Source of the DNA: an uncultured delta proteobacterium
Lineage (GTDB): Bacteria; Desulfobacterota; Syntrophobacteria; BM002
DNA length: 64,000 nucleotides
Reading direction: 5' to 3'
NCBI GenBank assembly: GCA_963712115.1
Contig: CAVQGX010000022.1
Coordinates: forward strand, 63,153 to 127,152
In this document: positions 30,439 to 61,574 of the stretch, piece by piece
Numbering within the stretch: the first letter of the stretch is position 1
Layout of the letters: each line of letters begins with the position of its first letter
Translations under genes and position numbers: made by a program
Notes under the pieces: generated by a model
Told to the model about the DNA's origin: nothing
The model's database searches: none
What the model saw: the letters and a program-made list of their open reading frames with translations, nothing else

Positions 30439-30696
30439 TATTGTTTCCTCCGCGGTTAGCGGTGGGGATCGGGTGGCCTGGTTGTCCTTGGGCCTCTGTG
30501 AAGCGAACCCGAGGTCGTTGAAGTAACCAAATTCATGCTAATCATAATAATTGGTTATTCTTTATGTTACCATTCTAATATGGCAAAGGCTGCGAGGATA
30601 GAGTACATTTTCATTCGCATCAAAATTTGAGTAACTCAGACACTCTAACCTGCAAGGCTGTGTGATTAGCCCCCAGCTCGGTGAGGAGATCAAAGA

Positions 30697-31113
30697 ATGA
30701 AAAGAATTATTTCAGCGGTGTTGAAAATATCCATTGCACTAACTTTGGTTGCCGCTCTTTCCTTAAATGCAGTGGCCGGTAGCGCGCCCAGGATTACCAA
30801 AGAAGAACTCAAATCGATGCTGGGTGATGCAAAACTGGTTATTGTTGATCTTAGAAGAAGTAAGGACTGGAACTCCAGTGAATATAAAATAAAGGGTGCT
30901 GTCCGGGCCGATCCTGATCCAAGGAAGGTTGAATCCTGGGCCAGGAGCTATGGTAAAGACAAGACCTTCGTTGTTTATTGAGCCTGACCCAACGAACACA
31001 CCAGTGCCCGTGCGGTACTGAAGCTGATAGATGATGGATATCCCAAGGCCTATGCCTTAAAGGGCGGTTGGTACGAGTGGTTTCGGGCTAAATACCCAGT
31101 TGAAAAGAGGTAA
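30697..31113 (+). CDS. Secreted rhodanese-like selenoprotein with UxU motif (138 aa)
   Basis: After TFVVY, TGA (30979-81) GCC TGA (30985-87) continues in frame as PNEHTSARAV...YALKGGWYEWFRAKYPVEKR-TAA, completing the rhodanese fold; SECIS-like hairpin follows. Confidence 0.88.
31002..31020 (+). promoter_or_regulatory. SECIS-like hairpin of the UxU rhodanese
   Basis: CAGUGCC-CGUGC-GGUACUG; loop 27 and 21 nt after the two UGAs. Confidence 0.65.
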
Positions 31114-31170
31114 CCGTTTCATCCAACAGAGCACCATTGGGCAACATCTCCTCAGCGGACAACCGTTTCA

Positions 31171-31406
31171 ACTAGGCACTAAGAACTAAGCACTAGGCAC
31201 CACACAGGATTATTCAGTAACGAGTAGTTGAGAAGTACTCATTTTTGGATGCTTTTGTGTTAAATTCTGGATTATGACTCCTGGCTCCTTGCTCTATGCT
31301 CCATGCCCTATGCTTTTTCAAATGCGAAATCCGCATTCCGAAACCGGGAACCCGCCCGAAGGGTGGGAGTCCGAAGGACAAATTATCAAAGTGCATAGTG
31401 CCTAGT
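31171..31406. repeat. Nested repeat cluster (outer CTAGGCA/TAGTGCC arms, inner heptamer and REP-like units)
   Basis: Same outer units as 8944-9041; contains one arm (31333-31363) of a 31-bp inverted repeat. Confidence 0.65.
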
Positions 31407-61030: not shown

Positions 61031-61052
61031 ATGATGGAAAGGGAGGAAATAA

Positions 61053-61574
61053 ATGCGAAAGGCTGCAGTGGTCTTCTGGCTGGTTGTTGTAGTTGTGAGC
61101 CTGTCTTTCGTTTCCGCTTGCGATAATCCGCAGAAAGTAGGCGTGAGCCAGGCCAACGTTCAAAGTGAATTTCTGGCGATGAAAGCAGCCAGCGAAAAAG
61201 AACGGGGCGATTACAAGTTGATTAGTTTAGGGGATTTGAAGGCAAAATTAGACGCCAAGGAGGATATTCTTGTTGTGGACACCATGCCCTATGAGGCCAG
61301 CTACAAAAAACAGCACATTCCAACCGCTGTGCAGTTTGAGTTCCCAATTGCCGAGATGACAACCATGGATCCTGAAATGAAAAGGCAATACCAGGAATTA
61401 CTAGGGCCGGACAAAGATAAAATGATTGTAGTTTACTGTGGCTTTGTCAAGTGTGGGCGGAGCCACAACGGGGGCATGTGGGCGACAAGACTGGGTTACA
61501 CAAATGTCTACCGCTGTCTCGGCGGAATATTCGGTTGGAAGGAGGCCGGGTATGCGGTTGAAGCGGTGAAATAG
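61053..61574 (+). CDS. Rhodanese-like lipoprotein (CxxxxC active loop)
   Basis: Lipobox VSAC; VVDT, HIPTA, VVYCGFVKCGRSH, GGIFGWKEAG. Confidence 0.92.
   Translation: MRKAAVVFWLVVVVVSLSFVSACDNPQKVGVSQANVQSEFLAMKAASEKERGDYKLISLGDLKAKLDAKEDILVVDTMPYEASYKKQHIPTAVQFEFPIAEMTTMDPEMKRQYQELLGPDKDKMIVVYCGFVKCGRSHNGGMWATRLGYTNVYRCLGGIFGWKEAGYAVEAVK

Follow-up and report, generated by a model that had tools for sequence, protein, structure and literature searches.

The window, that is the whole 64-kb stretch of DNA that was analysed, carries on its forward strand the predicted coding sequence (30697..31113, +) of a 138-residue rhodanese-related selenoprotein of the NF041203 family, in which two UGAs are read through and which ends on TAA. 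An AGGAG resembling a Shine-Dalgarno sequence can be read off 8 nt 5' of the ATG (30684..30688, +), and hydropathy indicates a probable Sec-pathway signal peptide with a putative cleavage site (30697..30777, +). Standard translation halts at residue 94, and UxU rhodanese genes such as this one therefore look truncated under standard annotation. The interruption lies in TAT TGA GCC TGA CCC (30976-30990): the first in-frame UGA (30979..30981, +; U95) occupies the canonical catalytic Cys position, where most relatives have Cys (TGC or TGT), and the second (30985..30987, +; U97) is the usual selenocysteine (Sec) of NF041203, a TGA in 113 of 125 loci. When TGA is read as U across 30697-31113, the frame yields 138 residues, including U95 and U97, up to the TAA. 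A single bacterial SECIS-type hairpin (31002..31020, +; 7-bp stem, loop CGUGC) falls within codons T102-L108. The TGA-GCC-TGA at 30979-30987 and the one hairpin downstream are as described in the original prediction, which also held that read-through restores the remaining 42 residues of a rhodanese fold; the restoration stands, but 41 residues follow U97 and the figure of 42 counts U97 itself.

Sequencing error as the source of the TGAs is ruled out, because three other genomes of the host genus have the same two TGAs, and an independent public contig from another run (run X16, record 21, 30911-31022) spans both and differs at only two positions, neither of them in the TGAs. Contigs from RNA libraries also cover the gene, but do not show transcription. 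No promoter or terminator match was obtained on the strand of the gene, no Rfam family came near its gathering score, and a simple hairpin filter singled out no further convincing case of read-through within the window. Directly 3' of the gene, positions 31150-31400 belong to an intergenic repeat family with 130 BLAST hits in the genome, and this repeat reaches very high depth in public runs.

The translated protein scores 172.4 bits against the NCBIfam profile NF041203 ('rhodanese_LYCAU', rhodanese-related (seleno)protein; curated cut-off 115), covering positions 5-126 of 126, and also matches Pfam Rhodanese (PF00581). It has the Sec at the third position of Y-C-x-U (TGA 30985-30987), whereas the first motif position, Cys in the catalogued CxU form, is here a TGA; the protein is thus a UxU variant of NF041203. 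An AlphaFold2 model built from a 96-sequence alignment (pLDDT 95.9) has its best structural match in 2hhg (Z 15.6; 103 residues at rmsd 1.9), with GlpE (1gn0) at Z 14.7 and the Wolinella polysulfide-sulfur transferase (1qxn) at Z 12.6. In the model a strand (62-66) precedes U95, and both the model and a profile alignment to 6ku1 put U95 immediately behind the last active-site strand, which agrees with the proposal that the first UGA occupies the catalytic Cys position. The active-site loop of GlpE/PspE-type rhodaneses has six residues. The window protein shares their fold and the chalcogen residue at the start of the loop, but alignments make its loop two residues longer; for this reason some alignments place U97 rather than U95 on the catalytic Cys, and neither the substrate nor the catalytic residue can be read from homology.

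The protein begins with a basic stretch and a hydrophobic core, with A-V-A (25-27) ahead of G28, and a similar hydrophobic leader occurs in 17 of the 19 UxU loci. Judged by hydropathy, then, the N-terminus resembles an export signal, in line with the secretion originally proposed, and export of the rhodanese, probably to the periplasm, may be presumed. Altogether, with sequence, family, fold model, conservation, selection and hairpin covariation in hand, we consider it likely that the gene encodes an exported (periplasmic) single-domain NF041203 rhodanese in which both active-site thiols are replaced by Sec, as U95-A-U97. The window codes near its end (approximately 61050-61565, +) for another exported rhodanese, which seems to be a lipoprotein (..VSACDNP..); this one has the motif YCGFVKCGRSHNG and no UGA.

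At E 1e-28 or better, members of the NF041203 family turned up in 82 of the 401 phylum genomes searched; at E 1e-10 they turned up in 23 of 41 relatives. The 139 pooled matches were reduced to 134 by removal of duplicates and to 125 at a threshold of at least 55 bits, which dropped nine weaker rows. Homologues with CxC, CxU and UxU motifs were recovered, mostly with Cys at the first position: 94 loci are CxU, 19 UxU, five CxC and seven other, and none is UxC. A TGA occurs at motif position 1 in 20 loci (all 19 UxU loci plus one that has lost two codons) and is shifted by one codon in two loci, while stops elsewhere were met in only two of the 125, across some 33 stop-adjacent codons per gene. 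Among the unusual forms, L128 and L131 (family f41) read Y-C-C-S-U, with two Cys and the UGA one codon further downstream. In L141 (G277), the two-codon deletion leaves Y-U-Q-K-E-G-T, with one UGA at the usual Sec spacing, and brings the loop back to the length usual in rhodaneses; the hairpin of L141 appears degraded. The distant CxC relatives include a betaproteobacterial fusion of a VTT(DedA) protein with a rhodanese.

The UxU form is spread over 11 taxonomic families. A quick tree built from 124 of the 125 rows (one CxU row was omitted), in which the motif was masked, asks for 14 changes, at least eight of them forced by starred branches, and a single UxU clade was rejected in a subset of 42 rows (18 of them UxU; one long branch was excluded; p-AU 3e-102). 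Gains and losses of UxU are indistinguishable on this tree, and CxU members (L001, L119, L062) are nested in UxU clades; L001, the closest orthologue of the window gene (82% identical), has Cys (TGC) at position 95. A pattern scan of metagenomes returned at least 120 UxU matches, and all 120 listed match the NF041203 profile. Among these, 115 stay open for at least 36 codons downstream, four end at a contig edge and one is cut short; the 111 complete domains among the matches listed form 97 clusters at 90% identity.

These data bear on whether the first UGA is no more than a nonsense change in the codon for the catalytic Cys, which would make the gene a pseudogene. The change from TGC or TGT to TGA takes a single substitution, the nearest orthologue does have TGC, and UxU is scattered over the tree. 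However, a TGA stands at codon 95 in 20 of 125 loci against two stops anywhere else, and the sequence downstream of the TGAs is under purifying selection: for the 41 codons that follow U97, the four congeneric UxU genes give a dN/dS of 0.18-0.36 (0.25-0.50, and noisier, over the 29 codons left when those of the SECIS are removed), and in four UxU-cytochrome fusions, which keep at least 430 intact codons downstream, it is 0.10-0.23 over 430 codons. The SECIS is moreover intact in all 19 UxU loci, and the metagenomic frames listed are, as noted, nearly all open. The pseudogene is thereby largely refuted and in our view scarcely credible. The selection on the downstream segment and the position of the stops uphold the earlier argument that two independent nonsense mutations at these sites are unlikely, and both UGAs are very probably sense codons.

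The hairpin (CAGTGCC-CGTGC-GGTACTG; -10.1 kcal/mol) has its loop at 31009-31013, with a G at 31010. Counting from the first and the second UGA respectively, the base of the stem lies at 20 and 14 nt, the distances first reported for it, and the apical loop at 27 and 21 nt. Taken alone it is modestly unusual (z -1.9 against shuffles, eight of 200 of which fold as well). The published model of the bacterial SECIS asks for a loop of 3-9 nt, a stem of 4-16 bp, a free energy of -7.5 kcal/mol or lower, a G in the first two loop positions and a distance of 16-37 nt from the UGA (PMC13188914). With its 7 bp, its loop CGUGC and its distances of 27 and 21 nt, the hairpin agrees with this model for both UGAs, and a hairpin of this kind follows only 21 of the 997 TGA-ended ORFs of at least 200 aa in the host genome. 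CxU and UxU genes share its register: the loop of the best hairpin begins 21-22 nt 3' of the second UGA in 16 of 19 UxU and 85 of 94 CxU loci, and in the remaining three UxU loci the same hairpin ranks second. The loop G occurs in 19/19 UxU and 93/94 CxU loci, against 1/5 CxC loci. The idea that the first UGA has a further, shifted hairpin of its own was rejected, as no UxU-specific hairpin was found among the 19 UxU loci.

Two synonymous sites in the stem covary as T-A or C-G with near-complete pairing; the tables (59/5/2/26 in CxU, 14/1/0/4 in UxU) are inflated by kinship and GC bias. The same holds for the 109 distinct metagenome sequences among the matches listed (65/4/0/40, likewise inflated), in which the 3' partner site lay outside the search pattern. 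A conserved Ser codon is AGY in 19/19 UxU and 93/94 CxU loci, although TCN is commoner in the host genome; it is AGY in nine of 11 non-Sec loci as well, and AGY alone is a weak signal. Given the common register and the covariation at synonymous sites, one SECIS most likely serves both UGA codons, and the claim of a single hairpin is thus borne out by a single SECIS whose position is conserved between CxU and UxU relatives. We propose a decoding scheme that, as a whole, seems to us very likely. The ancestral NF041203 SECIS would serve U97 and, with its loop 27 nt away in a model range of 16-37, would also lie within the reach of SelB from codon 95; a single substitution turning the catalytic Cys codon into UGA would therefore be read as Sec with no need for a new RNA structure, and one hairpin would be used twice, two codons apart. 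Such a scheme would account both for the recurrence of UxU on a CxU background and for the absence of UxC.

Of the selenium machinery, the host genome contains selA, one selB and a Sec-type selD, the last on the same contig as the window (C22:26789-27709; L016) and with its own in-frame TGA in G-G-U-A-C-K. Nothing convincing was found for tRNA-Sec in this 94%-complete assembly by Rfam, by ARAGORN at lowered thresholds or by a motif scan. In three congeners selC lies just beyond the gene that in the host reaches the end of contig C31, and since C31 ends some 270-420 nt short of that position, the missing tRNA-Sec is probably due to an assembly gap at the contig break. A tRNA-Sec is present in four of the five congeners examined and in the other 18 of the 19 UxU genomes. 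The host assembly seems short of several tRNA genes, tRNA-Sec and some others being absent, and the sole tRNA-Cys called by ARAGORN (C42:18595-18670) has an odd anticodon loop (GTGCATA).

One or both UGAs might instead be read as Cys by a SECIS/SelB-dependent tRNA-ReC (selC*), which would make the protein CxU or CxC. Such tRNAs occur in the phylum of the host (PMC5389517) and are reported to be enriched in genomes with UXXU hydrogenases (PMC13582414). We recovered seven tRNA-ReC-like genes (91-94 nt, GCA or TCA anticodon) and built from these a model with which 80 of a planned 87 genomes were searched; 53 candidates were scored per genome, the genomes are incomplete and the seven source genomes match by construction. 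In all, 11-13 of the 80 genomes carry tRNA-ReC-like genes, one with a UCA anticodon (G037; loci L191-L193, L195, L197, L198, L202 and L211-L221). Three of the 19 UxU genomes have one, but this is no enrichment over the other genomes (8 of 61, or 10 with two weak hits), and none of the nine genomes of the host's family, the host and eight others, yielded any. Neither selC* nor selB* nor CysRS* was found in the host assembly, which is 94% complete and lacks some other tRNAs; it has one SelB only, and its second CysRS is a form of about 800 aa, not the shortened CysRS* (PMC5389517). Short CysRS-like matches turned up in two of 19 UxU and four of 22 other genomes, with no tRNA-ReC beside any of them. 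Recoding of either UGA to Cys seems very unlikely.

The genomic context of the rhodanese gene says little of its function. It stands alone, in a neighbourhood that is syntenic within the genus only; the neighbours (HNH, ACT and cNMP-binding proteins and an unknown membrane protein) give no functional hint, and no sulfur or selenium operon was found in this neighbourhood. In nine of 50 neighbourhoods a CxU copy lies near a membrane protein of about 460 aa resembling amino-acid permeases (L005, L007, L018, L019, L021, L023, L052, L053, L058), which is absent beside the window gene. Fusions are more telling: five of the 19 UxU loci and four CxU loci are fused to multiheme cytochromes, and the one fusion in which the motifs were counted (L085:2442-4046; PF13447) has eight CxxCH. 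Since some relatives are thus fused to an octaheme cytochrome, the role of the domain is likely to be that of a periplasmic sulfur/selenium carrier or reductase module, as judged from gene architecture. In all nine fusions (L085, L086, L087, L088 and L093, UxU; L029, L041, L042 and L119, CxU) the Sec-rhodanese is N-terminal to a multiheme cytochrome c weakly similar to hydrazine dehydrogenase. CxU-cytochrome copies occur in three genomes of the host genus, and 25 of the 120 metagenomic UxU matches listed continue for more than 100 codons. The fused protein is a candidate periplasmic selenium-dependent sulfur redox enzyme, and the octaheme fusions point to an enzyme that is as yet unstudied. 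The Sec-dependent multiheme polysulfide reductase of Geobacter is a different protein (PMC13510729).

Chemically, U95 would attack a sulfane-sulfur or selenium donor (polysulfide, thiosulfate or a persulfide) to give an Se-S adduct, U97 would resolve this adduct by releasing sulfide or handing the sulfur or selenium on, and the resulting Se-Se bridge would be re-reduced by periplasmic electron carriers, a scheme to which we give not quite an even chance. Alternatively, U-x-U may serve as a site for soft metals or oxyanions (Hg, As, Cr, selenite) in a periplasmic binding protein or reductase of the Cdc25/Acr2 or ChrE kind rather than in a sulfurtransferase. The extended active-site loop would suit such a role, the structural neighbours include the As/Sb reductase 2j6p and Cdc25 (Z 11-12), and there is a weak ChrE match (37 bits against a cut-off of 120). 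However, the protein has no arginine at the Cx5R spacing, a feature of phosphatases and arsenate reductases; single-domain rhodaneses and sulfurtransferases resemble it more closely in structure (Z 14-15.6), and no metal-resistance genes lie nearby. A metal or oxyanion site is therefore unlikely.

The second Sec may also matter less than its chemistry suggests. With the SECIS already in place, UxU could be a passenger state: both residues would be Sec, with U95 a near-neutral passenger or a leaky selenium-dependent checkpoint lowering output at times of selenium shortage, and the protein would function just like its CxU counterpart, without any distinctive diselenide chemistry. Since the closest orthologue has Cys and switching between CxU and UxU is frequent, U95 may indeed give little advantage; the nesting of CxU members in UxU clades and the minority status of UxU (19 of 125) point the same way. 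Against this, UxU has been kept in several diverged genomes belonging to two clades (dS 0.3-1.0), and this despite the cost in translation efficiency that a second UGA presumably carries. We regard the passenger or checkpoint as a substantial possibility, though one still short of probable. The most far-reaching reading is that one SECIS, with ordinary SelB and tRNA-Sec and no tRNA-ReC, decodes both UGAs ('SECIS hitch-hiking'), that the U-x-U diselenide site arose at least eight times within this one family, and that the domain is the Se-Se redox head of a periplasmic polysulfide or sulfur reductase, acting in trans here and octaheme-fused in relatives; as a whole it is tentative and rather doubtful. 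If SECIS hitch-hiking were true, these 110 residues would offer a natural test bed for the reach of a SECIS and for a very tight protein diselenide. The gene is in any case a compact natural system for asking whether a single bacterial SECIS decodes a pair of UGAs that lie two codons apart; the recurrent change from C to U over an existing SECIS shows a cheap route to new selenocysteines. Our literature searches returned no experiment on one bacterial SECIS serving two UGAs and none on the NF041203 family.

The UxU rhodanese is not without precedent. Zhang and Gladyshev (2007; PMC1976440, Fig. 3A) described the evolution of a second Sec, giving UxU, in a family of rhodanese-related sulfurtransferases of deltaproteobacterial symbionts of Olavius algarvensis; the motif and the broad bacterial group are the same as here, and the passages describing it give no spread, origins or SECIS analysis. 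We infer that the 2007 protein belongs to NF041203, because three rhodanese forms are traced back to a common 2005 source and form 3 alone among them is CxU (PMC13188914). The window gene is thus a further member of a kind published in 2007, in a family already curated. A 2026 review lists NF041203 as CxU with one Sec, with no UxU in its table (PMC13188914), and a 2022 review likewise gives CxU and one Sec; two are predicted in UxU members. Compared with the catalogued form, the window gene has the same motif register, leader and SECIS and passes the curated cut-off, but the Cys codon at its catalytic position is also UGA. Nearest in decoding are the UXXU Group 4 [NiFeSe] hydrogenases, for which one downstream SECIS was proposed to serve both UGAs (PMC13582414, 2026). 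There too the core hairpin is shared by the Cys/Sec and Sec/Sec forms (CXXU and UXXU), but the protein is different, the UGAs are three codons apart rather than two, and tRNA-ReC is enriched in the genomes concerned (~56%), as against three of 19 UxU rhodanese genomes. TsoB (NF045694), a rhodanese/DsbD fusion, is likewise a rhodanese-domain protein with two Sec, but these are more widely spaced (UxxxxU) and joined to a DsbD-like part, and the window protein reaches only 29 bits against its cut-off of 805. The polysulfide-sulfur transferase of Wolinella succinogenes is periplasmic. That enzyme (1qxn) and GlpE (1gn0) have the same fold as the window protein and a catalytic residue after the same strand; they differ in having a single Cys and a loop that is shorter by two residues, and they lack both a second chalcogen residue and Sec.
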